Source: Squalus acanthias
Taxonomy: Eukaryota
Assembly: GCA_030390025.1 (NCBI GenBank)
Contig: CM059431.1
Location: 102,550,001 to 102,614,000 of the forward strand
Direction: 5' to 3'
Length of the DNA stretch: 64,000 nucleotides
Positions 703-61,599 of this stretch are shown one piece after another (the stretch's first letter is position 1; every line of letters begins with the position of its first letter). The notes beneath the pieces were generated by a model. That model saw nothing but the letters and a program-made list of their open reading frames with translations, was not told where the DNA came from and made no database searches. Position numbers and translations under genes: made by a program.

Positions 703-1286
703 TCATTTCAGCTTTGCGCTGTGATACGGCCTGCGACAGGGATGGAATGATGGGGATGTGGTGAGCAGCAAGGATCTGGGGTTTAATTTATTGGAACCGC
801 AGACCGCCCTTCCAGAAGGTCGATTGAGTGGCTGCCTCCTCTCCCGCTCCTGTTCCTCCTCCTCATTTTCCTCTTCCTCCTCATCCTTGTCCTCCTCCTC
901 CACTCCCTGTTCCTCCTCCTGAGGTGGTCCTGCAATCCCTGGTGGCAAGGGCTGGGCCCTCATGATGGCCAAGTTGTGCAGCATGCAGCAGGCCACGACA
1001 AAATGGGACACCCACTCCGGTGAGTACTGGAGGGCTTCTCCCGAGCGGTCAAGGCAGCAGAACCATTGCTTGAGCACCCTGATGGTCTGCTCGATGATGT
1101 TCCTGGTGGTGGCATGGCTCGCATTATACAAGTGCTGAGCACGAGTGCTGGGGTTGCGGAGAGGAATCATGAGCCAGGTGGAGAGCGGATAGCCCTTGTC
1201 TCCGACCAGCCAGCCGCGAGCTTGATGTGGTGGCTGGAAGAGTGCTGGCACAGGGGGAAGGCATCATGGCTGCTGCCAGGATAGCG
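703..1286 (-). pseudogene. Harbinger DDE transposase (DDE_Tnp_4/HARBI1-like), C-terminal fragment
   Basis: Motifs [10 protein letters not shown] (frameshifted, ~1257-1286), [26 protein letters not shown] and [10 protein letters not shown], followed by an acidic tail. Confidence 0.9.
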
Positions 1287-12067: not shown

Positions 12068-14791
12068 ATCACTGGTGGGAGTAGTTTATAGCCCCCCAAA
12101 CTATAGTAGCTATACCAATGGACAGAGTATTAATCAACAAATAATAGGAGCTTGTAACAAAGGTAATACAATAATCATGGGGAACTTTAATCTTCATATA
12201 GACTGGGCAAATCAAATTGGCAAAGGTAGTCTGGAGGACGAGTTCATGGAATGCATTCAAGACAGTTTCCTAGAACAATACGTCATGGAACCAATCAGGG
12301 AACAGGCTATTTTGGATCTTGTATTGTTGTAATGAGACAGGGTTAATTAGTAATCTCATAGTAAAGGATCCTCTGGGGAGGAGTGATCATAATATTATAG
12401 AATTTCACATTGAGTTTGAGAGTGAAATACTTCAGTCCGAAACGAGAGTCTTAAACTTAAATAAAGCCAATTACATAGGTATGAGGGGCGAGTTAGCTAA
12501 GGTAGATTGGGAAATTAGATTAAAAGGTATGACGGTAGATAAGCAGTGGCAAACATTTAAAGAAATATTCCAAAATTCTAAATGAAAATACATTCCATTG
12601 AGAAATAAAAACTCCATGGGAAAAGTAATCCATCCGTGGCTAACTAAAGAAGTTAAGGATAGTCTTAGATTAAAAGAAGAGGCTTATAATGTTATGAAGA
12701 ATAGTAGTAAGCCTGAGGATTGGGAGAGCTTTAGAAACCAGCAAAGGATAACCAAAAGTTGATAAAGTGGGAGAAAATAGATTATGAGAGTAAACTAGCA
12801 AGAAATATAAAAGCAGATTGTAAGAGCTTCAACAAGTATGTAAAAAGGAAGAGAGTAGCAAAAGTAAACATTGGTCCCTGAGAGGCTGAGACAGGTGAAA
12901 TTATAATGGGGAATAAGGAAATGGCAAAGACTTTAAACAAATATTTTGTATCTGTCTTCACAGTAGAAGACACAAAAAGCATACCAAAATAGTGGGGAAC
13001 CAAGGGACTAAAGAGAGTGAGTAATTAAAGTAATTAATATCAGTAGAGAAAAAGTACTAGAGAAACTACTGGGACTAAAAGCAACAAATCCTCTGGACCT
13101 GATGGCCTACATCCTCGGATTGTAAAAGAGGTGGCTGTAGAGATAGTGGATGCATTGGTTGTGATATTCCAAAATTCCCTAGATTCTAAATCGGTCTTAG
13201 CGGATTGGAAGGTAGCAAATGTAACCCCGCTATTCAAGAAAGGAGGGAGAGAGAAAACGGGGAACTACAGGCCAGTTAGCCTGACATCAGTCGTCAGAAA
13301 AATGCTGGAATCCATTATTAAGGAAGTAGTAACAGGGCACTTAGAAAATCATAATATGATTAGCCAGAGTCAACATGGATTAATGAAAGGGAAATCATGT
13401 TTAACAAATTTATTAGCGTTTATTGAGAATATAACTAGCAGGTAGATAAAGGGGAACCAGTGGATGTAATATATTTGGATTTCCAAAAGGCATGCGATAA
13501 GGTGCCACATAAAAGGTTGCTATGCAAGATAAGGGCTCATGGGATTGTGGGTAATATAGTAGCGTGGATAGAGGATTGGTTAAAGGACAGAAAACAGAGA
13601 GTAGGGATAAATGGGTCATTTTCCAGTTGGCAGGCTGTAACTAGTGGGGTTCCGCAAGGGTCAGTGCTTAGGCCTCAGCTATTTTCAATCTATATGAATG
13701 ACTTAGATGAAGAGGCCGAGTAATTTATCCAAGTTTGCTGATGATACAAAGCTAGGTGGAAAAATAAGCTGTGAGGAGGACACAAAGAGCCTGCAAAGGG
13801 ATATAGGCAGGTTCAGTGAGTGGGCAGTAAGGTGGCAGATGGAGTATAATGTGGGGAAATGTGAAGTTATTCACTTTGGTAGGAAGAACAGAAAAACAGA
13901 ATATTTTTTAAATGGTGAGAAACTATTAAATGTTGGTGTTCAGAGAGATTCAGGTGTCCTCGTACAGGAAACACGGATTTAGCATGCGGATACAGCAAGC
14001 AATTAGGAAGGCAAATGGCATGTTGGCCTTTATTGCAAGGGGGTTGGAGTATAAGAGTAAGGAAGTCTTACTACAATTGTACAGGGCTTTGGTGAGACCA
14101 CACCTGGAGTACTGTGCACAGTTTTGGTCTCCTTATCTGAGGAGGATATACTTGCCTTAGAGGCGGTGCAACGAAGGTTCACTAGATTGACTCCTGGGAT
14201 GAGAGGGTTGTCCTATGAGCAGAAATTGAGCAGATTGGGCTAATACTCTCTCGAGTTTAGAAGAATGAGGGGTGATCTCATTGAAACATATAAGATTCTG
14301 AGAGGGATTGACAGGGTAGATGCTGAGAGGTTGTTTCCTCTGGCTGGAGAGTCTAGAACCAGGGGGCATAGTCTCAGGATATGGGGTCGGCCATTTAAGA
14401 CTGAGATGAGGAGGAATTTCTTCACTCAGAGGGTTGTGAGTCTTTGGAATTCGCTACCCCAGAGGGCTGTGAATACTGAGTCGTTGAGTATATTCAAGAC
14501 TGAGATCGATAGACTTTTGGACTCTAGGGGAATCAATGGAATGAGGATCGGGTGGGAAAGTGGAGTTGAGGTCGAAGATCAGCCATGATCTTATTGAATG
14601 GCGGAGCAGGCTTGGGGGGCCGAATGGCTGACTCCTGCACCTATTTCTTATGTTTTTATACAGATCATCCATTATCTGATAGAATGGCAGGACAGGCTCG
14701 AGAGGCTGAATGGTCTTCTCCTGTTCCTATGTTCCTATGTAAATACATTCTCACTTGTAGCATCATTTTAAAAAAACAATGTAAAATATTT

Positions 14792-15029
14792 GAAATAAAA
14801 ACAGAAAATGCTGGAAATACTCAGCAGGTCAGGCAGCATCTGTTGAGAGAGAAACAGAGTTAACGTTTCAGGTCGATGACCCTTCTGGCCAGTTCTGACG
14901 AAGGGTCATCGACCTGAAACGTTAACTCTGTTTCTCTCTCCACAGATGCTGCCTGACCTGCTGAGTATTTCCAGCATTTTCTGTTTTTATTTCAGATTTC
15001 CAGCATCCGCAGTATTTTGCTTTTGTATT
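14792..15029 (+). mobile_element. Penelope-like hairpin insertion (family A)
   Basis: Inverted arms of about 95 bp (14792-14885 and 14900-14994) plus a unique 3' tail. TSD AATGTAAAATATTT at 14778-14791 and 15030-15043. Contains a hammerhead core. Confidence 0.8.
14891..14927 (+). ncRNA. Minimal type I hammerhead ribozyme motif
   Basis: AGUU-CUGACGA-A-GGGUC(AUC)GACCU-GAAA-CGUU-AACU, with stem I AGUU/AACU, a 5-bp stem II and a palindromic AACGUU stem III. Confidence 0.7.
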
Positions 15030-15540
15030 AATGTAAAATATTTATTTACTATCTCCATCACGCCTTCATTCCCACAATGACTCATTCCTTCATCTAAGTT
15101 GCCGTTCCCTCTCTTCAATTTAAAAAAAAAACTTTTTATAGGTTTATAAAGCCTTTACTATTTCCTTGCATATTAGAAAGAAAAGGAAAAAGACTTGCAT
15201 TTATATAGCGCCTTTCATGACCTCAGAATGTTTAAAAGCGCTTTACAGCCAATGAAGTACTTTTTTTTTTGAAGTGTAGTCACTGTTGTAATGTAGGAAT
15301 TATCTGCTAGCCTTTTTACATAGGCCCTCTATTCTCCCTCTTCACCAGCCTACTACACTTTCTATATTCCTCATGATTATCTTTAGTATTGTTAGCCCTA
15401 ATTGTATCCAATTGTACAGTCTTAATTTCTCTAGTTATCCATGGAATTTATCTTTGATGTATCCTCTTTTACACCTTCTATTAGAAAATTTCACATCGCT
15501 GATTAGTTTGCCTTTTTGCCTCGTTAACTTTGGCCAAATC

Positions 15541-23007: not shown

Positions 23008-23395
23008 TAAGGTGGCCAACTCTGATTTGGACGTATTCCTGGAGGTTTCATCAGGTGACCTCCTGCCTCCAACCGCCCCGCCCCCACACTCCCGCCATTG
23101 GTCACCCGACACTTCCATCCTCGCGGTGCCCCGCCTTCCCTCGTCAATCGGAAAGCGAACGACTCTTTGTTAGCGGATTTCCCGTGGTTACGGTCGCAAC
23201 AAAGAATTGTTAGGTCCTGCAACAATAACCTCCACGTGATTCAGGCCCAAGTGCTTTTAAACAACAAGCTTTAATATAAATTGACTAACAACAGTATTGT
23301 TTTTATACAACTGTTCTACAGCAAAGCACGCTGGGATACTTGACCATTTAAACCACTTTAACATATTCTAACACTTCATTACCTGATTGGATGAT
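23008..23395. mobile_element. hAT-type MITE fragment (TAGGGTTGCCAAC family) carrying a solo LTR
   Basis: Aligns with the reverse complement of 40257-40702 and with 47116-47400. Interrupted at 23168-23373. Confidence 0.7.
23168..23373 (-). mobile_element. Solo LTR (206 bp); partial copies at 23579-23760, 31838-31950 and 35363-35396
   Basis: Termini TGTTAG...CTAACA. CTCTT lies to the left (23163-23167) and also after the 35396 copy. The sense-oriented copy at 23579-23760 shows GTATAAAAA followed by ATTAAA. Confidence 0.7.
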
Positions 23396-26351
23396 AAGTA
23401 ATTAATACAAACTGGTTCCTCCACTAAGACCAAGATGATCAGACTTGTAACCTTCATGGGCTACCATTAGGGCAAAAGGACTTCTGATTATCCACGAGAG
23501 TGCTCTAACTTTTGCAGGGAACAGGTTCTACCCTTATACTCTTCGGCTACCTTAGGCTGCACATACTCATAACAGAAGTGTTAGAATATTTTAAAGTGGT
23601 TTAAATGGTAAAGTATCCCAGCGAGCTTTGCTGTAGAACAGTTGTATAAAAACAATACTGTTGTTAGTCAATGTATATTAAAGCTTGTTGTTTAAAAGCG
23701 CTCGGGCCTGAATCCCATGGAGGTTATTGTTCCAGGACTAACAATCCTTTTTTGCGCTACGCTGGAGGTGTTTACACAAAGTCCTAATCGCTTCGGCTGC
23801 TAACTCTGTCTTACAAGCTTTGTTTTATTGTACTCAGAAATGCGTAGGCCAGTCTTTATCTGCTTCTGCCCTTGCTGGGTGTCCATAGCTCTGATTGCCG
23901 TAGCAGTACTGCAGTGCTATCAGTTGCAGTGGTATGTGGTGTCTTAGCAGCTGTAACCCTTATCTTGGTACCTGATTCCCATGGTTCAGCTTGTTTTGTT
24001 CACACAGAGATGAAAGGCTTCCCTTTAGCACCACCGCCCTCCCCCCCCACCCCCGCACCCTTCCTCCACGTTCTCTCTCTGGCTAAAATGCTGGAGCAAA
24101 GATACTTGACATAGGATTACACAGGATATACGGCACAGAAACAGGCCATTCGGCCCAACCAGTCCATGCCGGTGTTTATGCTCCACTCGAGCCTCCTCCC
24201 GTCTTTCCTCATCTAACTCTATCAGCATAACCCTCTAATCCCTTCTCCCTCATATGCTTGTCCAGCCTCCCCTTAAATGCATCTATACTATTCGCTTCAA
24301 CCACTCCCTGTGGTAGCGAGTTCCACATTCTCACCACTCTCTGGGTAAAGAAGTTTCTTCTGAATTCCCTATTGGATTTCTTGGTGACTATCTTATATTG
24401 ATGGCCTCTAGTTATGCTCTTCCCCACAAGTGGAAACATTCTCTCTGTATCCACTCTATCAAAACCTTTCATAATTTTAAAGACCTCTATTAGCTCACCC
24501 CTCAGCCTTCTTTTTTCGAGAGAAAAGATACCCAGCCTGTTCGTCCTTTCCTGATATGTATACCCTCACATTTCTGGTATCATCCTTGTAAATCTTCTCT
24601 GCACCTTCTCCAGTGCCTCTATATCCTTTTTATAATACGGCGACCAGAACTGTACACAGTACGCTAAGTGTGGTCTAACCAAGGTTAGATACAGGTTTAG
24701 CATAACTTCTCTACTTTTCAATTCTATCTCTCTAGAAATAAGTCCTAGTGCTTGGTTTGCATTTTTATTGCCTTGCTAACCTGTGTCGCAACTTTTAATG
24801 ATTTGTGTATTTGTACTCCTAGATCCCTTTGTTCCTCTACCCCACCTAGACTCGCACCCTCCAAGTGATAAGTGACCTCCCTATTCTTCCTACCAAAATG
24901 TAATACCTCACATTTATCTGTGTTGAACTTCATTTGCCAATTATATGCCCATTCTGCAAGTTTATTAATGTCCTCCTATAACTTGTTGCTGTCCTCCTCA
25001 GTATTGACTATCCCCCTCCTCAATTTGGTGTCATCCGCAAATTTAGAAATTGTGTTTTTGATTCCAAAGTCTAAATCGTTAATGTAAATTGTGAACAGCA
25101 GTGGTCCCAGCACTGATCCTTGTGGAACACCACTACCCACCTTCTGCCACTGTGAATAGCTACCCTTTACTCCTACTCTCTGCATTTTTTCTTGAAGCCA
25201 GCGAGCTGTATTTTGCTATTGTATTAGCTATCCATTCTGCTACTTGTCCCCTGACTCCGTATTCTCTGACCTTGTTCATTAGCCTATTATGGGGTACCTT
25301 ATCAAAGGCCTTTTGAAAATCTAGATAAATTACATCTACTGCATTACCATTGTCTACTCTCTCAGTTACCTCTTCAAAAAATTCAATGAGGTTGGAAATC
25401 CATGCTGACTATTCCTTATTATATTTTTGGTTTCTAGATGTTCTTTTATTTTCTCCTTTAGTAGGGATTCCATTATTTTTGCTACCACTGATGTTAAGCT
25501 GACTGGTCTATAATTTCCTGGACATGTTCTATCCCCCTTCTTGAATATGGGTATTACGTTAGCTATCACCAGTCTACTGGCACTACACCTTTTTCTAACG
25601 AATTATTAAATATGTGTAGTAATGCCTCTGCTATCTCTTCCCTAGATTCTTTCAAAATGCATGGATGCAATCCATCCGGACCGGGGGTTTTATCCTCTTT
25701 GAGTTTGATTAATTTATTTAATATACCCCCTCTTTTTATTTTAAATGCACTTATCTCATTACTAATCTCATCATCCAATGTCATGTCCACCTGTTCTATC
25801 TCCCTGGTAAATACTGAAGCAAAATAATTATTTAATATTTCTGCCATCTCTCTATCGTTACCTGTGGTATTATCTTGTCTATCCCTTAATGGCCCTATTC
25901 CCATCCCAACCTTCCTTTTTTATTGATGCGCCTGTAAAATATTTTACTATTTTGTTTTATGTTCCTTGACAATTTAATTTCATAGTTCCTCTTTGCCTTC
26001 CTAATTGTTTTTTTGACTTCTCTCCTAATCTCTTCGTATTCTCCCTTATCATGCACTCCCCTGCTGTCCATGTACTTAATGTTTGCCTTGTGGCGGATCG
26101 CCACCCAAAACGGGCATAATCCACTCTTCCGTCTGTGGACAAATTTCCAGCCCCTCCCCTTTAAGGCACATTACCTTTAAGGCAGAAGGGGGCGGGGCCT
26201 CAGGTTTTACCCAGAGAATTCTGGGAGTTTTTCCAGAGAATTCTGGGAGCAGCTCTCGCAGCCGTTTTGTTATAGCATGCAGTGAATAAAAGTTTCTTGT
26301 TTTCCACACATGGATTCAGCCTCCATTCGTGTTTCGCGGCAGCCTCAACAT

Positions 26352-26366
26352 TGGTGACCCCGACGT
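26352..26366 (+). promoter_or_regulatory. Primer-binding site complementary to tRNA-Trp 3' end
   Basis: TGGTGACCCCGACGT lies one base after the 5' LTR and matches the first 15 nt of the canonical Trp PBS TGGTGACCCCGACGTGAT. Confidence 0.9.
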
Positions 26367-26390
26367 TCAGAACGTATTCCGAGCACTGCA

Positions 26391-29300
26391 ATGACGGACA
26401 CGAACGCAGTTTCCGTGAAACTGCCGGAGTTTTGGGAAAACCAGCCCGAAGCCTGGTTTCTCCAAGCTGAATCTTGCTTCCGGCTGCGAAATATCACCAC
26501 AGATGGGACGAAGTACGACTATCTCGTCACATCACTCAGTAATGCCACAGTTTCCAAGGTTTGGACAACGCTGCAGAACCCACCAGAGGAAGGCAAGTAC
26601 GCACATCTCAGAACAGCGCTCCTTAAAAAATTTACGGCCTCGGCATATCAGCGAAACTGCCACCTCTTCGACCTTCCATGTCTCGGTGATGCCTCACCGT
26701 CAGACCTCCTCTCCCACATGCTCTCCCTCACCGACGAGAGCCCACCCGGATCCCTCTTCCGCACGCTGTTCATCCGCCAGCTCCCTCTCAGCATCCGCCC
26801 AGCGATCGTGGCGTCCGGCCTCACGAACCTGGAAGCCCTGGCCGATGAGGCCGACAAGCTGCTGTCCGCTCACTCCAGCCGCGACGTCACTCCGGACCTG
26901 GCAGCCAATGCCTGGGCGCGCCCCTCACCATCCAGCACACGGCTACAAGGGCCTGTCACCAGGCACACGGGGCCTTCACGCCCCACTAACCCGGGCCACT
27001 GTTACTACCACACACGGTTCGGCGCCAGGGCACAACGGTGCACACCTCCCTGCTCTTTCAAGTCCGCCCCCGTTCCAGCCCCCGCGATGGCCATGGGCCA
27101 CGCGGGCTCTCTGCTGTTCGTCACGGATGACAAAACCGGCCGCCGGTTCCTGTGCGACACTGGGGCTCAGCACAGCATCATCCCGGCCTCCTCCCTCGAC
27201 ATCCAAAAGGGCGAACGAGGACCGGCGCTGGCTGCTGCTAATGGCTCGGAAATCCGGACGTATGGCACCCGGACAGTCACCCTCGACCTCGCTGGTCACC
27301 GCTACCGATGGGAGTTCATCACTGCCAAGGTGCTCTCCCCTCTCATCGGCGCAGATTTCCTGTGCGCCCACGGCCTACTGGTAGACATCCCTCGTCACCG
27401 CCTCGTGGACATGAACACCATGTCCCCCATCCTGGGCGCCATGGCCCCCCGTCAACCCGCCGACATGGCATCACAGTGCCACGCCCGGGCCACGGATGAC
27501 TACTCGGCTCTCCTGGCCGAATTCCCGGCCCTTACCAATCCGACCTTCTCCGCGGAAGCCGCCAAACACGGGGTGGAACACTTCATCCCCACCACAGGCC
27601 CCCCAGTGTACGCCCACGCCCGCAGGCTGGACCCGGCCAAACTGGAGATCGTGCAGACCGAGTTTGCCACCATGGAACAGCTCGGCATCATCCGCCGCTC
27701 CAACAGTCCCTGGGCCTCCCCACTCCACATCGCCCCCAAACCAGGCGGAGGTTGGCACCCCTGCGGGGATTACTGCCGCCTCAATGACGCCACCACCCCT
27801 GATCGGTACCCCATGCCGCACATTCAGGACTTCTCGGCTAGACTGGCCGGCCGCTCAGTCTTTTCCAAGGTCGACCTGGTGCGCGGCTACCACCAAGTCC
27901 CCGTCCACCCCGCGGACGTCCCCAAGACGACCGTAATCACCCCCTTCGGTCTGTTCGAGTTCCTGTGGATGCCCTTCGGCCTCAAAAACGCGGCCCAGGC
28001 ATTCCAACGGCTCATGGACTCGGTCCTTCGGGACCTGAAGTTCCTGTTCGTCTACCTGGACGACATCCTGGTAGCCAGTTCCTCCAAGCAGGAACACCTC
28101 GAACACCTTCGCATCCTGTTCGGGCGCCTCAGCGACCACGGGCTCATCCTTAGCCCAGCCAAATGCCAGTTCGGCCTGGACAAGATCGACTTCCTCGGCC
28201 ACCACATCACCCATGCTGGGGCCATTCCCCTGCCCACCAAGGTGCAGGCCGTCCAACAATTTCCCCGCCCCACCACCATCAAAGGCCTCCAGGAGTTCCT
28301 CGGGATGGTGAATTTCTATAACCGCTTCATCCCCAAAGCGGCGTCCCTCATGAGGCCCCTGTATGAAGCCCTCCGGGGCAGGAGCAGCAAGATGGCGGTC
28401 GAATGGACGGCAGACGCGTCCGCCGCCTTCGATTCCACCAAGACCGCGCTCGCCAATGCCACCCTGCTCGCGCACCCACGGCCCAATGCCAGGGTAGCGC
28501 TCACCACGGACGCCGCCGACCACGCGGTCGGCGCCATGTATGAGCAGTGGGTCGACGGCACCTGGCAACCACTTGCCTTCTTCAGCCACCAACTACGCCC
28601 CCCGGAGGTCAAGTACAGCACCATCGACCGCGAGCTCCTCGCGCTGTTCCTGGCGGTCCGCCATTTCCGGTTTTTGCTTGAGGGCCACCCCTTCACTGCG
28701 TTTGTCGACCACAAGCCCCTGACATTTGCAATGGCAAAGACAACCGACCCCTGGTCCGCCAGGCAGCAGCGCCAGCTCGCGGCAGTGTCCGAGTTCACCA
28801 CGGACATCCAACACGTCTCCGGCCGAGACAATGTGGTAGCCGACTGCCTCTCACGCCCCGCCATCCACGCCGCACACCTAGCAGTCGACTACGCTCAACT
28901 CGCAGCAGACCAGATCACCGACCCTGATCTGCTCTCCGCACCCACCAACCTACCAGGGCTACGCCTGGCTGACGTCGCCTGTGGCCCGACCGCAGTCACG
29001 GTCAAGTGCGACATATCCCTATGTCAACCTCGGCCCGTCGTCCCAGCGTCCTGGCGCCGCCAGGTATTCGACATTCTCCACAACCTCTCCCACCCCGGCG
29101 CCCGCGCATCCATCAAATTGGTAGCCAACCGCTTTGTATGGCGCGGCCTTCGCAAGGATGTATGTACTTGGGCCAACTCCTGCCTAGCCTGCCAACGGGC
29201 CAAGGTACAGCAACACACGAAAGCACCCCTCGAGGAGTTTACCGTCCCCTCGCGGAGATTCGACCACATCCACGTGGACATCGTCGGGCCCCTGCCGCCG

Positions 29301-30203
29301 TCGCAAGGCCACACGCACTTGCTGACCATCATTGACCGCACCACACGCTGGCCTGAGGCAATTCCACTGACCTCTACCACCACCGCCGACATCGCCAGAG
29401 CCTTCGTCGGCACCTGGGTCGCACGGTTCGGCGTCCCCTCCGACATGACGTCGGACAGAGGTCCGCAATTTACCTCTGAACTCTGGACCGCCGTCGCACG
29501 CAATCTCGGGGTGACCATTCACCGCACCACAGCGTACCACCCCCAAGCCAACGGACTGTGTGAGCGGTTCCACAGATCCTTGAAGGCATCTCTTCGAGCC
29601 AGCCTCCAAGACGGCGCCTGGACCGATCGACTTCCGTGGGTCCTCCTCGGCCTGCGCACCGTGGTTAAAGAAGACCTCCACGCATCGGCAGCAGAGCTCG
29701 TGTACGGTCAGCCGCTGCGCGTACCCGGCGAGTTCCTGCCCACCGCCACGACACCCTGGTCAGCCGACCAGCAACGCCACAACTTCGCCTCACCGGCGCT
29801 GCAGTTCGCCCCGGTGCCCATTGCCCGACACGGCGAATCCATCTCACACGTCCCACTAAGCCTGCACCAGGCACGGTTTGTTTTCGTCCGGCACGACGCC
29901 CACCGCGGACCCCTTCAACCCCCATATGACGGGCCCTACAAGGTGCTACAGGCTGGGGACAAATTTTTCACCCTGCAAGTGGGCGACAGGACCGAAAAAG
30001 TGTCGGTGGACCGACTCAAGCCAGCACACTCGGAGCCCGGGGAGCAGGTCCCTGTAGCTCGTCCACCTCCACGAGGCCAACCTGCCCTCAAGCCAGTTCA
30101 CCCGGCTGCTCCACGCCCGGCCGTTCCACGTTCACCGGCGTCCTACAAGAGCCGCTCCGGCCGGCCCATCAGACCGCTGCACCATCTCGTCCACACCTCC
30201 TAA
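26391..30203 (+). CDS. Gag-Pol polyprotein (Gag with CHCC knuckle, protease, RT, RNase H, integrase)
   Basis: VKLPEFW...WFLQAE N-terminus, CYYH-x9-C-x3-C, LCDTGA, YLDD, TTDA...RELLA...DHKPL...ADCLSR, HNLSH...CLAC and the D-D-E triad (HVDIVG, SDRG, CERFH). Confidence 0.96.
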   Translation: MTDTNAVSVKLPEFWENQPEAWFLQAESCFRLRNITTDGTKYDYLVTSLSNATVSKVWTTLQNPPEEGKYAHLRTALLKKFTASAYQRNCHLFDLPCLGDASPSDLLSHMLSLTDESPPGSLFRTLFIRQLPLSIRPAIVASGLTNLEALADEADKLLSAHSSRDVTPDLAANAWARPSPSSTRLQGPVTRHTGPSRPTNPGHCYYHTRFGARAQRCTPPCSFKSAPVPAPAMAMGHAGSLLFVTDDKTGRRFLCDTGAQHSIIPASSLDIQKGERGPALAAANGSEIRTYGTRTVTLDLAGHRYRWEFITAKVLSPLIGADFLCAHGLLVDIPRHRLVDMNTMSPILGAMAPRQPADMASQCHARATDDYSALLAEFPALTNPTFSAEAAKHGVEHFIPTTGPPVYAHARRLDPAKLEIVQTEFATMEQLGIIRRSNSPWASPLHIAPKPGGGWHPCGDYCRLNDATTPDRYPMPHIQDFSARLAGRSVFSKVDLVRGYHQVPVHPADVPKTTVITPFGLFEFLWMPFGLKNAAQAFQRLMDSVLRDLKFLFVYLDDILVASSSKQEHLEHLRILFGRLSDHGLILSPAKCQFGLDKIDFLGHHITHAGAIPLPTKVQAVQQFPRPTTIKGLQEFLGMVNFYNRFIPKAASLMRPLYEALRGRSSKMAVEWTADASAAFDSTKTALANATLLAHPRPNARVALTTDAADHAVGAMYEQWVDGTWQPLAFFSHQLRPPEVKYSTIDRELLALFLAVRHFRFLLEGHPFTAFVDHKPLTFAMAKTTDPWSARQQRQLAAVSEFTTDIQHVSGRDNVVADCLSRPAIHAAHLAVDYAQLAADQITDPDLLSAPTNLPGLRLADVACGPTAVTVKCDISLCQPRPVVPASWRRQVFDILHNLSHPGARASIKLVANRFVWRGLRKDVCTWANSCLACQRAKVQQHTKAPLEEFTVPSRRFDHIHVDIVGPLPPSQGHTHLLTIIDRTTRWPEAIPLTSTTTADIARAFVGTWVARFGVPSDMTSDRGPQFTSELWTAVARNLGVTIHRTTAYHPQANGLCERFHRSLKASLRASLQDGAWTDRLPWVLLGLRTVVKEDLHASAAELVYGQPLRVPGEFLPTATTPWSADQQRHNFASPALQFAPVPIARHGESISHVPLSLHQARFVFVRHDAHRGPLQPPYDGPYKVLQAGDKFFTLQVGDRTEKVSVDRLKPAHSEPGEQVPVARPPPRGQPALKPVHPAAPRPAVPRSPASYKSRSGRPIRPLHHLVHTS

Positions 30204-32769: not shown

Positions 32770-33099
32770 ATAGAGTTCCCTATCACTACCACATTTCTAT
32801 TCTGCTTTTCCCCACCTTCGACAGCCTTCTGAGCCACGGTCTAGCCTTATTTTATTTATTTAATTAGTTAAAGTCTTTATTCAACGAATATTTATAGTTA
32901 TATTTATAGCTATATTAATTAGTTTAACTAGTTAAGCTATAAATTTAATACAGTACGTTATAGTTTCCAGGTCCTAGTTTAAACCACTGTCCTAGGTTAG
33001 AGAGAGAAAAAACGGTAATACTCACCCACCAATCACCTACCTGCTATCCTGTGATGTCACTCCTTAATTTTTTATTGTTGCTCTCTCTCCTTCGTTCCC

Positions 33100-35362
33100 G
33101 CTCCTTGTATCCCCGTCGCTCTCGCTCTCGCTGGTCCCACTCTCGCTCTCGCTCGGGTCGCCTCTCCTTGTATCCCCGTCGCTCTCGCTGGTCCCACTCT
33201 CGCTCTCGCTCGGGTCGCCTCTCCTTGTATCCCCGCCGCTCTCGCTGGTCTCGCTCTCGCTGGTCCCACTCTCGCTCTCGCTCGGGTCGCCGCTCCTTGT
33301 ATCCCCGTCGCTCTCGCTGGTCCCGCTCTCGCTCTCGCTCTCGCTCGGGTCGCCTCTCCTTGTATCCCCGTCGCTCTCGCTGGTCCCGCTCTCGCTCTCG
33401 CTCTCGCTCGGGTCGCCTCTCCTTGTATCCCCGTCGCTCTCGCTGGTCTCGCTCTCGCTCGGGTCGCCTCTCCTTGTATCCCCGTCGCTCTCGCTGGTCC
33501 CACTCTCACTCTGGTCCCGCCCTCGCTGGTCCCGCTCTCGCTCTCGCTCTCGCTCGGGTCGCCTCTCCTTGTATCCCCGTCGCTCTCGCTGGTCCCGCTC
33601 TCGCTCTCGCTCTCGCTCGGGTCGCCTCTCCTTGTATCCCCGTCGCTCTCGCTGGTCTCGCTCTCGCTCGGGTCGCCTCTCCTTGTATCCCCGTCGCTCT
33701 CGCTGGTCCCGCTCTCGCTCTCGCTCTCGCTCGGGTCGCCTCTCCTTGTATCCCCGTCGCTCTCGCTGGTCCCGCTCTCACTCTGGTCCTGCCCTCGCTG
33801 GTCTCGCTCTCGCTCTCGCTCTGGTCTCGGGTCGCCGCTCCTTGTATCCCCGTCGCTCTCGCTGATCTCGCTCTCGTTGGTCCCGCTCTCGCTCTCGCTC
33901 GGGTCGCCGCTCCTTTTATCCCCGTCGCTCTCGCTGGTCCCGCTCTCGCTCTCGCTCGGGTCGCCTCTCCTTTTATCCCCGTCGCTCTCGCTGGTCTCGC
34001 TCTCGCTCGGGTCGCCTCTCCTTTTATCCCCGTCGCTCTCGCTGGTGCGCTGTCGCTCTCGCTGGTCTCGCTCTGGTCCCGCTCTCACTCTCGCTTGGGT
34101 CGCCGCTCCTTGTATCCCCGTCGCTCTCGCTGGTCCCGCTCTCGCTCTCGCTCGGGTTGCCGCTCCTTGTATCCCCGTCGCTCTCGCTGGTCCCGCTCTC
34201 GCTCTCGCTCGGGTCGCCTCTCCTTTTATCCCCGTCGCTCTCGCTGGTCCCGCTCTCGCTCTCGCTCGGGTCGCCTCTCCTTTTATCCCCGTCGCTCTCG
34301 CTGGTCTCGCTCTCGCTCGGGTCGCCTCTCCTTTTATCCCCGTCGCTCTCGCTGGTCCCACTCTCGCTCTCGCTCGGGTCGCCTCTCCTTGTATCCCCGC
34401 CGCTCTCGCTGGTCTCGCTCTCGCTGGTCCCACTCTCGCTCTCGCTCGGGTCGCCTCTCCTTTTATCCCCGTCGCTCTCGCTGGTCCCGCTCTCGCTCTC
34501 GCTGGTCTCGCTCTCGCTCGGGTCTCGGGTCGCCTCTCCTTGTATCCCCGTCGCTCTCGCTGGTCCCGCTCTCACTCTGGTCCCGCCCTCGCTGGTCTCG
34601 CTCTCGCTCTCGCTCTGGTCTCGGGTCGCCGCTCCTTGTATCCCCGTCGCTCTCGCTGATCTCGCTCTCGCTGGTCCCGCTCTCGCTCGGGTCTCGGGTC
34701 GCCGCTCCTTTTATCCCCGTCGCTCTCGCTGATCTCGCTCTCGCTGGTCTCGCTCTCGCTCGGGTCGCCTCTCCTTTTATCCCCGTCGCTCTCGCTGGTC
34801 CCGCTCTCGCTGGTCTCGCTCTCGCTCGGGTCTCAGGTCGCCGCTCCTTTTATCCCCGTCGCTCTCACTGGTCCCGCTCTCGCTGGTCTCGCTCGGGTCT
34901 CAGGTCGCCGCTCCTTGTATCCCCGTCGCTCTCGCTGGTCTCGCTCTCGCTGGTCTCGCTCTCGCTCTCGCTCGGGTCGCCTCTCCTTGTATCCCCGTCG
35001 CCCTCGCTGGTCCCGCTCTCGCTCTCGCTCGGGTCGCCGCTCCTTTTATCCCCGTCGCTCTCGCTGGTCTCGCTCTCGCTCTCGCTCGGGTCGCCTCTCC
35101 TTTTATCCCCGTCGCTCTCGCTGGTCTCGCTCTCGCTGGTCTCGCTCTCGCTCGGGTCGCCTCTCCTTTTATCCCCGTCGCTCTCGCTGGTCTCGCTCTC
35201 GCTCTCGCTCGGGTCGCCTCTCCTTTTATCCCCGTCGCTCTCGCTGGTCTCGCTCTCGCTCTCGCTCGGGTCGCCTCTCCTTTTATCCCCGTCGCTCTCG
35301 CTGGTCTCGCTCTCGCTCTCGCTCGGGTCGCCGCTCCTTGTATCCCCACCGCTCTCGCTCTG
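33100..35362. repeat. CpG-rich minisatellite of ~45-70-bp units built on CTCTCG hexamers
   Basis: Unit approximately CTCCTT(G/T)TATCCCCGTCGCTCTCGCTGGTC(C/T)CG(CTCTCG)nCTCGGGTCGCC. The top strand is strongly pyrimidine-rich. Confidence 0.97.
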
Positions 35363-35396
35363 GTGACCATTTAAACAACTTAAAAATATTCTAACA

Positions 35397-35600
35397 CTCT
35401 TCATTACCCGATTGGATGATTCTTGACTGTCAGTTGAACAGCCTCAACCCCCGCCCACCATGTCCAATATTTTTATAACTAGTAAATTAAAAAAATATAT
35501 ATTTTTAATGCCTCAATGATTTTCCCCCTGGGTTTTTGCTCAGGAGATTAATCGTCAATTCCTGGAGACTCCAGGGCAGTCCTGGAGGGTTGGTAACCCT
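35397..35600. mobile_element. hAT-type MITE fragment (remaining half of the family seen at 23008)
   Basis: CATTACCCGATTGGATGA...CCTGGAGGGTTGGTAACCCTG matches the reverse complement of 40257-40490. Confidence 0.7.
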
Positions 35601-40959: not shown

Positions 40960-41812
40960 GATAGGAACAGGAGGAGGCCATTCTGCCCCTCGAGCCTGTT
41001 CCGCCATTCTATTAGATCATGGCTAATCTGTTATCTAAACTCCATCTACCCGCCTTGGTTCCATAACCCTTACCTAATAAAAACCTATTAATCTCAGTTT
41101 TGAAATTTTCAATTGACCCCCAGCCGCAACACCTTTTTTGGGGGAGAGAGTTCCAGGTTTCCACCACCCTTTGTGTGAAGAAGTGCTTTATGGGCAACAC
41201 GGTGGCATAGTGGTTAGCACTGGTGCCTCACAGCGCCAGGGACCCGGGTTCGAATCTAGCCTCGGGTGACTGTCTGTGTGGAGTTTGCACATTCTCCCCG
41301 TGTCTGCGTGGGTTTCCTCCGGGTGCTCCGGTTTCCTCCCACAGTCCAAAAATGTGCAGGTTAGGTTGATTTGGCTATGATAAATTGACCCTTAGTGTTA
41401 GGGGGGGATTAAATATGTGGGGTTACGGGGATAGGATGGGATATGTTAGGGGGAATTAAATACGTGGGGTTACGGGGATAGGGTGGGATATGTGTCGGTG
41501 CAGGCTCGATGGGGATTCTGTGTGAGGAAGCAGGGACAGGGTACTGGATTTGGATGATCAGCCATGATCGTATTGAATGGTGGAGCAGGCTCGACGGGCC
41601 GAATGGCCTACTCCTGCTCCTAGTTTCTATGTTTCTTCCTGACGTCACCCCTGAACGGCCTGGCTCTAATTTTAAGGTGATGCCCCCTTGTTCAGGACTC
41701 TCCCACGAGAGGAAATAGTTTCTCTCTATCTACCCTATCGAATCCTTTAATCATCTTAACCACCTCAATTAGATCACCCCTTAATCTTCTATACACGAGG
41801 GAATACAAGCCC
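40960..41812 (-). mobile_element. CR1 3' fragment split by an HE1 SINE
   Basis: HFFTQRVVETWNSLP to the left of the SINE; the CR1 sequence resumes at ~41636. Confidence 0.8.
41192..41635 (+). mobile_element. HE1-type V-SINE, full length
   Basis: A and B boxes, V-domain and CR1-derived tail; near-identical to the reverse complement of 2297-2725. Confidence 0.92.
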
Positions 41813-52420: not shown

Positions 52421-52912
52421 TCTAACCTATTTCTTATTTCTCAAGTATAAGACTAAGCATTGTTGTTAGCTTATTAAACAAGGCAGGGCAATGGGTACCA
52501 TAGCCCAGCTTAATCCAACATCTTCACCCGACATCCACACTCTCCCGAGCATGAATCACTGGATAGCAATCAGGAATAATAACCGTGACTGATTTCTTCC
52601 CTCCACCCCCCCACCATCCCTTAACCCAGGCATGCTAAGACAGAGATGGCCCTTATCACCACATGTTGAGATAAGGAGGACTTTGGGGAATGTACGGTTC
52701 AGTTCCATACTGGGCCGTGCAGCAACCGAGTCATCGGGTGAGCTTCTTTCAAGCGTGTGTGAATAACAACACACATTTATATATAGCGCTTCTAACACAG
52801 TAAAACATCCCAAGGCGCCTCACAGGAGCGTTGACAAACAAAATTTGACACCGAGCCACCTAAGGAGATATTAGGACAGGTAATGAGGTAGCTTTTAAAG
52901 AGCGTCTTAAAA

Positions 52913-53296
52913 GGAGAAGTCGCACAACACCAGGTTATAGTCCAACAGCTTTATTTGAAATCACAAGCTTTCGGAGCGCTGCTCCTTCGTCAGGTGAAGT
53001 GAAGAAATACAAATGGGCACAGCATATATAGTCAGAGAACAATGCCAGACGACTACAGTTAATCTTTCTAACTGCCTAAACTTTCTAAAAGGGCAGTTAG
53101 AAAGATTAACTGTAGTCGTCTGGCATTGTTCTCTGACTATTTATGCTGTGCCCATATGTATTTCTTCACTTCACCTGACGAAGGAGCAGCGCTCCGAAAG
53201 CTTGTGATTTCAAATAAAGCTGTTGGACTATAACCTGGTGTTGTGCGACTTCTCACTTTTGTCCACCCCAGTTCAACACCGGCATCTCCGCATCAT
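52913..53296 (+). mobile_element. Penelope-like hairpin insertion (family B)
   Basis: Inverted arms of about 163 bp (52914-53076 and 53092-53254) plus a 3' tail. TSD GTCTTAAAA at 52904-52912 and 53297-53305. Confidence 0.85.
53171..53207 (+). ncRNA. Minimal type I hammerhead ribozyme motif (mirror copy on minus strand at 52961-52997)
   Basis: UCAC-CUGACGA-A-GGAGC(AGC)GCUCC-GAAA-GCUU-GUGA, with stem I UCAC/GUGA and a palindromic AAGCUU stem III. Confidence 0.78.
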
Positions 53297-53305
53297 GTCT
53301 TAAAA

Positions 53306-53585
53306 TGTGCGGGTTAGGTTGATTTGGCTATGATAAATTGACCCTTAGTGTTAGGGGGGGATTAAATATGTGGGGTTACGGGGATAGGATGGGATATGTT
53401 AGGGGGAATTAAATACGTGGGGTTACGGGGATAGGGTGGGATATGTGTCAGTGTAGGCTCTATGGGGATTCTGTGTGAGAAAGCAGGGACAGGGTACTGG
53501 ATTTGGATGATCAGCCATGATCGTATTGAATGGCGGAGCAGGCTCGATGGGCCGAATGGCCTACTCCTGCTCCTAGTTTCTATGT
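53306..53585 (+). mobile_element. HE1 SINE, 5'-truncated
   Basis: Near-identical to 41350-41635; flanked by TTAAAA on both sides. Confidence 0.88.
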
Positions 53586-57339: not shown

Positions 57340-60300
57340 ATCGTGTCAATCGCAGATAAGGTAATCTCTGACCAGTTCCTCATATCGCTCTCCACCCACA
57401 TCCCCCTTCCAACCCTACTTCCTTCTGTGTCCGCCCCTGGAAAAAACTCTCTCCCCAGCTCTCTTTGCAACTGTACTTATGAAATCCCAAATGTCCAGCC
57501 TTTGGCCCTCCATTCACCGCGACATTTCTGCAGCTAGCGATCTGCTCAACCACACCCTCACCCCCTTTGATGCCCTAATCTCCATTAAAACCATTACTCT
57601 CTCTCACCCTGGCCATTCCCCCGGTACAGCCCTCATCTTCGCTCCCTTAAGTCCAAGGGATGCAGACTTGAACGGATATGGTGGACAACTAGTTTAGCCA
57701 TTCACCACCAGATCTGGCTGGACCACATAAAAGTATTATCGGGTCCTGCTCTCGTCTGCCAAAATTGCTCACTATTCCAGAATGATTCTGGAATGCAAAG
57801 ATAAACCCCGGCTTCTATTCTCTACTGCTAACCATCTTCTTAAACCCCTCTCCCGTCTCCTCCACCCTCACCTCTGACAAGTGTGAGGAGCTCATGGACT
57901 TCTTTGTCTCTAAGATTGAGACCATCCGTTCAGCTGCCTCTGCCACTTTGCTTCCTTCCCCTAGCCCACCGGGCCAAACTTCCTCTAAGGTTCCCCCCCT
58001 GCCCTAGCCCTGAACTCGCATCTTTCTCCAGTTTCTCTCCGAATCCCCCCCGCATGACCTCTCCACGCTCATCTTGTCCATGAGACCCACTTCCTGCTCC
58101 CTCGACCCTATTCCCACCAAACTGCTGACCACCCAACTTCCTTTTCTGTGTAAAGGAATAGCCATATTTCAGAAAAATACACCATCCTATGAAAGAATTT
58201 TGATTATTAAAACATGACAAACTGGGTTTAAAAATCTGGAAGCCTTAACTGTAAATACAGGCTTCTGAGAAGATGAGTTGTTAATACAAAGCTGTAAACA
58301 CCATACAGGCTTTTGAGATAAAGATCAGTTGTTGACACTGAAACAAAAGCCTCATTGAAACAGCAGATTGGAGCTTCCAGAAAGTCTGAGCTTTCGGAAG
58401 AACACAATGGAATCCCCAGTTTAAGGTGTCATAAAACTAAACACTTCGAACAGAAACACAGAACATTAAAGAATAATATGACTTCATAAATATGACATCA
58501 AATGAAAGACAGGAGACATAAGTCTGTAATACAACTAACTGCATAGATCACCCTAGTTGAAGTGTTTTTAATTTACATGTTGTAAAAGATACAAACAAAA
58601 GACTTTGTAAATATGACATCAATAGATGCACCAAGCAATCACATTGTGTTTGTATTGAACTTGGAACAGTTAGGAGACACGATGTCTGCTTATAACCAGC
58701 TGAGGTGATTTAAGAATTGAATAGAAGACCTTTGTAAGAATGGCATCAAATAGATACATCAGTTAAAACCATTTTTTATGATAAGTTTCGAACACCTACA
58801 CAGCAGACACAAGTCTGCAAGCTAACAGCTGAACTGACAGTAAGAATAGAAAGAAGTCAACAGAAATATGACTAGAGATAATTAGCTTACATCAACAGAA
58901 AACTTCAAAGGATATACCACCGAGAAAGAGTATAAAAGATAGGATTTTCAAATGGGAAAACAGAAGCCGCTGGAAGGGGCAAGCGATTCTCAACTTCAGA
59001 GGCAAGCTCTAAGTTTTCAACTCTTGAGTCTCGGGTAATCAAAGGTATTTTGATTTTGGTGGATATTCTGGATTAAGAATAAGTAGAAATGTAAAAATGT
59101 AACGAAGTTAAGATTTGAGAATAAGGATCTCAGAATAAGAATTGTAAGCTATTTGTATTTTGAACTGTTAAAGTTGCGATTGACTCACCAACTGTTAACC
59201 GCATGTCGGTTCTTTAATAAATCTATATATTTTTAGAATTGTCTCACATAGTACTTCTGTATCAAACTCGCAAACTCAAATTCTGTACACTCTTTGGTGA
59301 GGAGTTGCAGAATTCTGGGGGAGTTTTCCGGCCCCTCATAATATCCGGAAGGCTACAGTCTAGTTAAACTTATTTAAAGTGCTATCTGGAGGACGGTAAC
59401 ATCTTCAAGTCGTTCCTTTCCTTTAGGGAGAGATAGTCTGAACCTTTAGACCCAATTAAGCGTCTTATAGGATTCGGCTATCTCTAACTTTAGTTGAAGG
59501 TGAACGTCTGGGAAATACGCCTGATCTGGGGTAGCCCGAAAAGGGCTAGGACTAGTAATTATCCTTTCATCTGGCTCCCATGTTAGCTGACATTGTTAAC
59601 AGTTCTCTCTCCTTAGGTACTGTCCCCCTCCCCCTCAAATCTGCCGTCATCACCCTGCTCCTCAAAAAAATAACACGACCCCTCCGTCCTTGCAAACTAC
59701 CGCCCCATTTCCAACCTCCCTTTCCTCTCCAGAGTCCTTGAACGTGTTGTTGCCTCCCAAATCCATGCCCATCTTTACCACAACTCCATGTTTGAATCCC
59801 TCCAATCAGGTTTCCGCCCCACCACAGTACCGAAATGGCTCTCAAAGTCACAAATGACATCCTTTGTGATTGTGACAAAGGTAAACTATCCCTCCTCGTC
59901 CTTCTCGACTTGTCTGCAGCCTTTGACACGGTTGACCACTCCATCCTCCTTCAACGCCTCTCCACTGTCGTCCAGCTGGGTGGGACTGCACTCGCCTGGT
60001 TCAATTCTTATCTATCTAATCGTAACCAGAGAATCACCTGCAAATGGCTTCTCTTCCTTGGGGGTCACCAGAGGTAACATTGCGGGAATCTATCCTTGGC
60101 CCCCTCCTATTTCTCATCTACATGTTGCCCCTTGGCGACATCATCCGAAAACACAGCGTCAGTTTCCACATGTACGCTGACGACACCCAGCTCTACCTCA
60201 CCACCACTTCTCTCGACCCCTCCACGGTCTCTAAATTGTCAGACTGCTCGTCCGACATCCAGTTCTGGATGAGCAGAAATTTTCTCCAATTAAATATTGG

Positions 60301-60795
60301 GAAGACCGAAGCCATTGTTTTTGGTCCCCGCCACAAACTCCGTTCCCTAGCCACAAACTCCATCCCTCTCCCTAACATCTGTCTGAGGCTGAACACTGTT
60401 CGCAACCTTGGAGTCATATTTGACCCTGAAATGAGCTTCCGGCTACATATCCGCAGCATAACTAAGACCGCCTACTTCCACCTCCGTAACATCGCCTGTC
60501 TCCGCCCCTGCCTCAGCTCATCCGCTGCTGAAACCCTCATCCATGCCTTTGTTACCTCTAGACTTGACTATTCCAACGCACTCCTGGCCGGCCTCCCATA
60601 TTCTACCCTACGTAAACTTGAGGTCATCCAAAACTCGGCTGCCCCGTGTCCTAACTCGCACCAAGTCCCGTTCACCCATCACCCCTGTACTCACTGACCT
60701 ACATTGGCTCCCGGTTAAGCAACGACTCGATTTCAAAATTCTCATCCTTTGTTTTCAAATCCCTCCATGGCCTCGCCCCTCCCCATCTCTGTATT
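57340..60795 (+). mobile_element. Long degenerate L2 ORF2 segment split by a solo LTR
   Basis: [33 protein letters not shown] and LHWLPV. The sequence rejoins as CTTTTCTG|GCTCCCATG across 58149-59569. Confidence 0.9.
58149..59569 (+). mobile_element. Long (1421 bp) solo LTR
   Basis: Termini TGTAAAGGA...TCCTTTCA and a 4-bp TSD TCTG (58145-58148, 59570-59573). TATAAAA at ~58931, AATAAA at ~59217, and diverged ~130-bp repeats upstream of the TATA box. Confidence 0.8.
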
Positions 60796-60796
60796 G

Positions 60797-61001
60797 ATGA
60801 TGTGGAGATGCTGGCGTTGGACTGGGGTGGATAAATGTGAGAAGTCGCACAACACCAGGTTATAGTCCAACAGTTTTATTTGAAATCACAAGCTTTCGGA
60901 GCGCTGATCCTTCGCCTGACGAAGGAGCAGCGCTCCGAAAGCTTGTGATTTCAAAAAAAGCTGTTGGACTATAACCTGGTGTTGTGCGACTTCTCACATT
61001 T
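60797..61001 (-). mobile_element. Penelope-like hairpin insertion (family B, shorter)
   Basis: Same sequence family as 52913-53296. TSD ATCTCTGTATTG at 60785-60796 and 61002-61013. Hammerhead core on + at 60912-60948. Confidence 0.85.
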
Positions 61002-61599
61002 ATCTCTGTATTGGTTAAACATTACCTTGTAGTCAATTTATTTAAAACTCTTGGGATTAATTTTTCTGGTATTCAGAATGAAAGAGATATTAGAGACAGA
61101 GATAAAAAAAAACCTCTTGGCAGTCAGATAAAAACATCATGCTGCAACATTGAAAAACAAATGCAAAAAAAAGTCAGTACTTATACCTATGAGCCCACTT
61201 AGTGTATTTTTAGGTCTACATTTATTTCATCTAAACAGAACGAAGAGAACCGACTCCAAAAACACACAAAAGCTAGACTTTAGCCAAGCAAAGGTTGAGC
61301 TGTGAAGATCAGAATCCGAACTGCTGGTTGCAAAGATCTGATAATTTGCCGTACTTGACGAGTTTAACAGCAGAACAATTCATCTTTTTGATGCAACACT
61401 TTTTGCCTTTCAGCAGCAACCAGAGCAAGGCTTCATCCAAGGCAAAAACCTCCTGAATCAGGAACTAGTAATAAAGCAAGGGAAAGGCGTGACACGGTAA
61501 GCCAAAGACACCGAAAGTGCAGTCGGTTTCAAAGATGGCCGCAGGTAAACTGAAGCAGATCCCAATTGCATTCAACATCAGTGGTTTTGTTTGCTCTCT

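Follow-up and report, generated by a model that had tools for sequence, protein, structure and literature searches.

In the 384-bp insert at 52913-53296, one repeat end is present twice, head to head, and a tail is attached to just one of the two copies. The insert is very probably a dead, 5′-truncated leftover of an abundant Penelope-like retroelement (PLE). The best explanation overall, to which we give a probability of about 0.85, is an ordinary fold-back PLE stub. The insert lies in a 64-kb window (the whole stretch of DNA that was analysed), and its parts and immediate surroundings are as follows.

52904..52917, plus strand: left copy of the probable target duplication, 14 bp, from flank alignment
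52914..53076, sense on minus strand: tail-less arm, an inverted, 5′-truncated pLTR end, from repeat search and arm comparison
52961..52997, minus strand: left-arm minimal hammerhead motif with C3 at 52993 and the mirror-image cleavage site predicted at 52965
53000..53030, minus strand: TATA-like box and Inr-like motif of the left arm, a putative promoter pointing leftwards
53077..53089, no strand: 13-nt filler at the fold, from arm and contig comparison
53090..53254, sense on plus strand: tailed arm, a 5′-truncated pLTR end, from repeat search and contigs
53138..53172, plus strand: TATA-like box and Inr-like A of the right arm, putative transcription start of the element
53171..53207, plus strand: right-arm minimal hammerhead motif, stem I 53171-53174 / 53204-53207, core from 53175, predicted cut after 53203
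53255..53296 (about), plus strand: PLE "tail", 37-42 nt depending on how microhomology is counted, right arm only
53297..53305, plus strand: first 9 nt of the right duplication copy, from flank alignment
53306..53584, plus strand: 3′ part of a SINE-like element, a short separate repeat flanked by a 6-bp duplication of its own and matching 41353-41631 at 97.5% identity
53585..53595, plus strand: 6-bp duplication of the SINE and last 5 nt of the element's right duplication; the host LINE resumes here

Direct comparison of the arms (52914-53076 and 53092-53254) found them complementary at 161 of 163 positions, the mismatches being 53012/53156 and 53027/53141. In the repeat search, the inverted arms reached 168 nt at 98%. 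The insert strand folds at -315.4 kcal/mol (z -42), a stability equalled by 0 of 100 shuffles. The inverted arms of about 163 bp described in an earlier, sequence-only reading were thus borne out. That reading's 384-bp hairpin is also real, but it is asymmetric, with a one-sided tail (53255-53296) that the earlier description lacked. Within the filler, 8 of the 13 nt copy the adjacent arm, and an equal match was found in 93 of 20,000 shuffled fillers. This similarity suggests templated end-joining. The TATA-like box of the left arm has the family-majority form, and that of the right arm is one base off the majority, at 53141. The right-arm box, at 53138, lies 30 nt before the Inr-like A at 53168, the sole such A in 53092-53200.

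A 9-bp direct repeat (52904-52912 / 53297-53305) flanks the insert and had been taken for the whole target-site duplication. With the SINE set aside, the duplication counts 14 bp; the true duplication is therefore probably 52904-52917, its right copy split by the SINE. The end of the left duplicate matches the tail-less end of the element over 4 nt exactly, or 9 of 10 nt with one gap, as would be seen if synthesis had been primed there from the left DNA end. The sequence on either side belongs to an older LINE-derived repeat, presumably L2, which the element interrupts; each flank aligns to that repeat at another place in the window. A copy of this repeat adjoins RVT_1-bearing frames at 59674-60694. 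The repeat at 53306-53584, which we take to be SINE-like, is likely a later insertion than the hairpin. Most simply, the hairpin entered the LINE first and the SINE then landed in the right duplicate. A SINE-first order, with the element following and making a 9-bp duplication, is possible but requires more coincidences: the loss of 1 nt, agreement by chance with 5 nt of the host LINE, and insertion precisely at the SINE edge. Co-insertion of hairpin and SINE in a single event with an 11-bp duplication was rejected, as it leaves the 9-nt repeat between tail and SINE unexplained. The copies at 53306-53584, 41353-41631 and 2305-2564 belong to a young SINE-like subfamily whose members contain a 47-nt tandem duplication; two of the three copies are 97.5% identical. 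The repeats flanking the insert would fit the cartilaginous-fish source supposed in the earlier reading.

Each arm carries a motif made up of CUGACGA, one extra A, a 5-bp stem II with a 3-nt loop, GAAA and a 4-bp stem I. The two cores lie 182 bp apart, and GCUU of the right-arm motif occupies 53200-53203. A minimal-hammerhead descriptor gave 4 matches in the 64-kb window, against a mean of 0.01 (maximum 1) in 100 shuffles. The motif has the core, the extra base before stem II, the G10.1-C11.1 pair and the palindromic 15.2-16.2 of the minimal (PLE-type) hammerhead. The Rfam hammerhead models, named in the sequence-only reading as a check, returned 0 matches on the insert at gathering level, and the hammerhead was absent among the 14 and 2 matches returned up to E=10. 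The ribozyme call therefore rests on motif and context, by direct reading against the published PLE consensus. Rfam matches to miRNA precursors were hairpin-driven and all below gathering (best 142.6 of 249 bits). The cleavage site proposed earlier, after GCUU at 53203, coincides with the position predicted here. The earlier description of a "complete" hammerhead in each arm does not hold, as each is a single copy without helix III. Likewise, the palindromic AAGCUU given as stem III is present, but only its central 4 of 6 nt can pair, and with a second molecule. There is indeed one motif per strand; however, because an inverted repeat shows one motif twice, this is a single motif counted twice, and any transcript carries one.

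Two further fold-back copies in the window carry the hammerhead.

60797..61004, no strand: another fold-back copy of this family, with the tail on its left side and a 5-nt centre that lies within the hammerhead
14792..15029, no strand: fold-back copy from another hammerhead-bearing family; its arms are 98 nt, its centre is 14 nt, and one arm alone has an extension

The copy at 60797-61004 is flanked by a 12-bp duplication (60785-60796 / 61002-61013). It shares its tail end with the 52913-53296 insert, keeps the CUGA box in one arm only, and its centre belongs to the tail-less arm. The copy at 14792-15029 has a 14-bp duplication (14778-14791 / 15030-15043), and its centre reads on the sense strand of the tailed arm. 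All three hammerhead-bearing copies in the window are therefore head-to-head inverted, with a one-sided extension, a 12-14-bp duplication and differing fold points. Their arm truncation points lie 2, 5 and 14 nt apart, the 2 nt being that of the 52913-53296 insert. Only these three copies were examined in full. The 60797-61004 copy folds at a short natural inverted repeat inside the hammerhead, and the 14792-15029 copy also folded next to the hammerhead core. Elsewhere, at 23214-23738, an inverted pair with 164-nt arms (95% complementary, 197 nt apart) gave no hammerhead descriptor match and showed no obvious duplication by eye.

These features match those described for endonuclease-bearing (EN+) PLEs. 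The link to Penelope-like elements made in the earlier reading appears sound on motif type, inverted truncated ends and layout, as compared with three papers (PMC4209133, PMC8557442, PMC3846280). Minimal hammerheads are found in metazoan PLE pLTRs, and pairs on opposite strands 100-700 bp apart were ascribed to truncated PLEs (Cervera & De la Pena 2014, PMC4209133), so the pattern itself is already known. As far as the accessible text of that paper goes, its motifs share with ours the core boxes, the extra base between 9 and 10.1, G10.1-C11.1, a palindromic 15.2-16.2 without helix III and a 4-bp helix I; helix II is 5 bp here versus 7-8 bp in the Schistosoma families. The organisms named in that text include no shark. 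Craig et al. 2021 (PMC8557442) describe EN+ PLEs as having an inverted 5′-truncated copy and, at one end, a tail of 30-40 bp. Here we found a head-to-head inverted 5′-truncated copy with a one-end tail of 37-42 nt. In Arkhipova et al. 2013 (PMC3846280), EN+ PLEs have 8-10-bp duplications, and the rotifer pLTR has a TATA box about 20 bp before TCACT. The target duplications of the three copies here measure 14 bp (or 9 bp, had the SINE come first), 12 bp and 14 bp. At the level of sequence motifs, the pLTR combines the hammerhead with basal promoter motifs, the TATA-like box and TCACT occurring as in rotifer pLTRs (PMC3846280). Unlike canonical EN+ PLEs as these sources present them (PMC3846280, PMC8557442), the insert has no ORF between the repeats, and its family's duplications of 12-14 bp include microhomology. 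It resembles the Anolis carolinensis Poseidon element (PAc; Frangieh et al. 2024, PMC11167929) in its AT-rich target and in a hammerhead near the pLTR end, as it probably does in having both strands cut and extended and two RT start sites that bound the tail. The PAc ORF starts inside the hammerhead, whereas here all three post-core frames close within the arm, by eye.

Because no RT/GIY-YIG ORF was reached, we infer PLE membership from five structural features and not from protein. Pfam applied to the 125 frames of at least 70 aa in 35.8-64 kb gave 4 RVT_1 matches and 3 SUZ-C matches in a tandem repeat; none of these frames matched a GIY-YIG family, and no clear host gene was among them. In the first 35.8 kb, ORFs of at least 150 aa were inspected by eye. 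Assignment to a clade (Poseidon, Neptune) needs the RT, and the element is known here from its pLTR ends. Pattern scans of metagenomic contig and viral contig collections gave 0 matches to longer copies. Among the titles in the literature searched, none evidently described a shark Penelope family.

Public sequencing runs were used to separate features of the family from those of this insertion. The arm sequence was present in 20 of 21 listed runs, from 9 studies, and in at least five coded organisms. Two of the 21 are on record as RNA, each with fewer than five words or a small share. Contig pieces were placed on 53050-53335 in four runs at an 88% likeness cut-off, which favours conserved pieces; all four runs yielded them (12,404, 17,099, 1,803 and 1,486). 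The depth of these contigs is not copy number, and contigs carry no RNA ends, strand or level. The arm family is very abundant in public contigs. Among the 24 rows of loose ends listed (432 others unlisted), ends with heterogeneous flanks piled up at 53256-53260 (X1, X3, X7) and also at 53296-53297 (X7, X2), which are the two tail borders. In all four runs, contigs left the insert at 53088-53090 into one shared upstream sequence unlike the insert centre. Summed depth at 53080-53089 was 14 to 81 times below that at 53100-53109, and none of the 32 contig pieces listed (33,457 others unlisted) spanned the centre. The fixed outer ends and the divergence at 53088-53090 indicate that the outer ends are family features and that the centre looks private to this insertion.

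The hammerhead core is conserved in the family. One of the 12 variant rows listed falls within it, at position 53176, and exceeds 5% in one of the four runs, a count biased by the 88% cut-off. This conservation fits selection in the parent element and not at this locus. The variant, 53176 T>C, makes up 14% of summed depth in X7 (RNA by guess) versus 0.9%, 0.45% and 0.14% in X1, X3 and X2. On the antisense arm it reads A>G, as ADAR editing of the hairpin would. It is one site without matched DNA and may be just an expressed allele. A depth rise and several contig joints were also seen at the Inr-like A (53167-53168), the joints accounting for 5 of the 24 rows listed and at most 4 events. They give a weak hint of a preferred 5′ end, possibly run-off at the 5′ end of the element RNA. 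The longer arm of the 60797-61004 copy also begins around the equivalent of 53167-53168.

Double priming, to which we give somewhat better than even odds as the route to the hairpin, would proceed as follows. The GIY-YIG endonuclease of the element would nick both strands about 14 bp apart, and each nicked 3′ end would prime reverse transcription on element RNA. One priming site would be at the far end of the tail and the other at the tail start, the latter aided by microhomology between target and RNA. The two cDNAs would end prematurely at almost the same position, probably from copying one RNA, and would then be joined head to head with locally templated filler between. The hammerhead would be carried along as part of the pLTR. 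The lizard PLE protein was found to cut both strands of the target and to extend each of them, with RT starting at the two ends of the tail (PMC11167929); the accessible text of that paper offers no model of inverted ends. The close truncation points suggest that one RNA was copied twice. By title and abstract, no paper in the literature searched on Penelope and twin priming dealt with PLE inverted ends. A wider version of the double-priming account is tentative, and we put it a little under even odds: such hairpins would be fossils of double priming on one RNA, with cDNA run-off at a TATA/Inr start 7 nt before the core, and would leave divergent promoters and possibly ADAR-edited dsRNA.

The same PLE remnant could instead have formed by self-priming, an alternative that is possible but that we regard as rather doubtful. 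A tail-primed cDNA would have stopped at 53090, folded back, copied itself and been captured, through microhomology at the tail start, by the second end of the target. The near-equal truncation fits this as well as it fits double priming, the points being only 2 nt apart in the 52913-53296 insert. The arms of that insert share alleles at 5 polymorphic family sites (53153, 53159, 53162, 53219, 53247), and the centre of 14792-15029 lies on the sense strand of the tailed arm. Self-priming is also the published, preferred reading of junction palindromes in Arkhipova et al. 2013 (PMC3846280). However, snap-back of a tail-primed cDNA does not give the centre of 60797-61004, which belongs to the tail-less arm; this centre could have been flipped later by recombination between arms. 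At 53156, one site only, the arms carry two alleles of a family polymorphism. The tail start, moreover, is an RT start site in vitro (PMC11167929). The three copies give double priming no more than a modest lead over self-priming.

A non-autonomous ribozyme family was proposed in the sequence-only reading; one, retrozyme-like or MITE-like, that moves as the 384-bp hairpin is very improbable. The abundance of the arm sequence, its occurrence in at least five coded organisms and the three fold-back copies, which make short copies common in the window, would agree with such a family. Against it, the fold points differ among copies, 60797-61004 folding elsewhere and having one arm without CUGA, and the contigs of all four runs diverge upstream of 53088-53090 with the drop in centre depth described above. 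A varying fold point and a different upstream sequence in contigs mean that the 384-bp hairpin is not an amplified unit. MITEs and other DNA transposons have symmetric termini, a constant internal length and a fixed short target duplication. That assignment was rejected, as we found a one-sided tail, a variable fold point and 12-14-bp duplications. Non-LTR retrozymes are head-to-tail tandems with a hammerhead per unit and need two same-strand tandem motifs, according to a recent preprint (bioRxiv 10.64898/2026.07.22.740005). The insert is like them in being non-coding, hammerhead-bearing and derived from a PLE pLTR, and retrozymes occur in the one chondrichthyan sampled there. Unlike them, the locus is head-to-head with one motif per strand (bioRxiv 10.64898/2026.07.22.740005); it lacks the two or more head-to-tail same-strand units that define a non-LTR retrozyme, and this label was rejected as well.

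The fate of RNA from the locus was assessed by folding. Read-through transcription, whichever side it comes from, makes the antisense arm first, and the core was predicted to be paired (p=1.00) at all 6 transcript lengths. The hammerhead fold would cost about 68 kcal/mol on both strands, so that no switch is plausible on read-through RNA. The hammerhead in such RNA is predicted to be buried in dsRNA, and the long dsRNA anticipated earlier agrees with the fold predicted for the insert. Since the motifs are on opposite strands, they cannot dimerise within one RNA. The hammerhead could fold only in RNA started at the TATA/Inr-like site of the element, and would then need a partner or protein. From that site, without the antisense arm, the modelled cost falls to 1.3-6.0 kcal/mol, and this, together with the family-wide conservation of the core (subject to the same 53176 variant and cut-off bias), would speak for a switch. 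However, single minimal hammerheads showed no cleavage and dimers cleaved weakly (PMC4209133), and the lizard motif worked only with the element's protein, while insertion in vitro went ahead without the motif (PMC11167929). In secondary-structure models, an alternative dimer (-30.5) and two monomers (-23.2) also both came out more stable than the active dimer (-20.7). As the locus in addition lies within a pile of repeats with no sign of selection on it, the earlier proposal of a selected switch at this locus between hammerhead self-cleavage and dsRNA fold-back is hardly credible.

Read-through RNA would likely be processed as dsRNA, by analogy with Drosophila. There, dsRNA arises from rearranged Penelope copies that contain long inverted repeats, and it is to these inverted stretches that siRNAs map (Evgen'ev 2013, PMC3681739). 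The insert has a similarly long inverted repeat, and for it an siRNA fate is expected from sequence. The D. virilis Penelope promoter was described as TATA-less and internal (PMC2377424), unlike the TATA-like box here. On A-to-I or dsRNA editing of such hairpins, the best 10 of 168 literature matches held nothing specific.

The locus itself carries little weight, as there are very many such remnants. Copies of this kind that are short, young and bounded at both ends do, however, preserve the two priming sites, the two truncation points and the place where the halves were joined. The origin of tandem and inverted PLE ends is described as unsettled in PMC8557442. If the record of double priming is true, a census of genome copies would show how PLE inverted ends arise. 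Were introns to hold many such copies, these would also supply plenty of perfect dsRNA, as inverted Penelope copies do in flies (PMC3681739).

Several other elements were noted in the window. By eye, an uninterrupted 1281-aa frame at 26358-30203 (minus strand) reads like the gag-pol polyprotein of a Ty3/Gypsy LTR retrotransposon, and an uninterrupted 980-aa frame at 9187-12129 (minus strand) reads like a CR1-type LINE ORF2 with endonuclease and RT. A 186-aa frame at 703-1263 (minus strand) resembles, also by eye, the C-terminal part of a Harbinger-type transposase. A long low-complexity tandem array at 32964-35443 has open frames on both strands.
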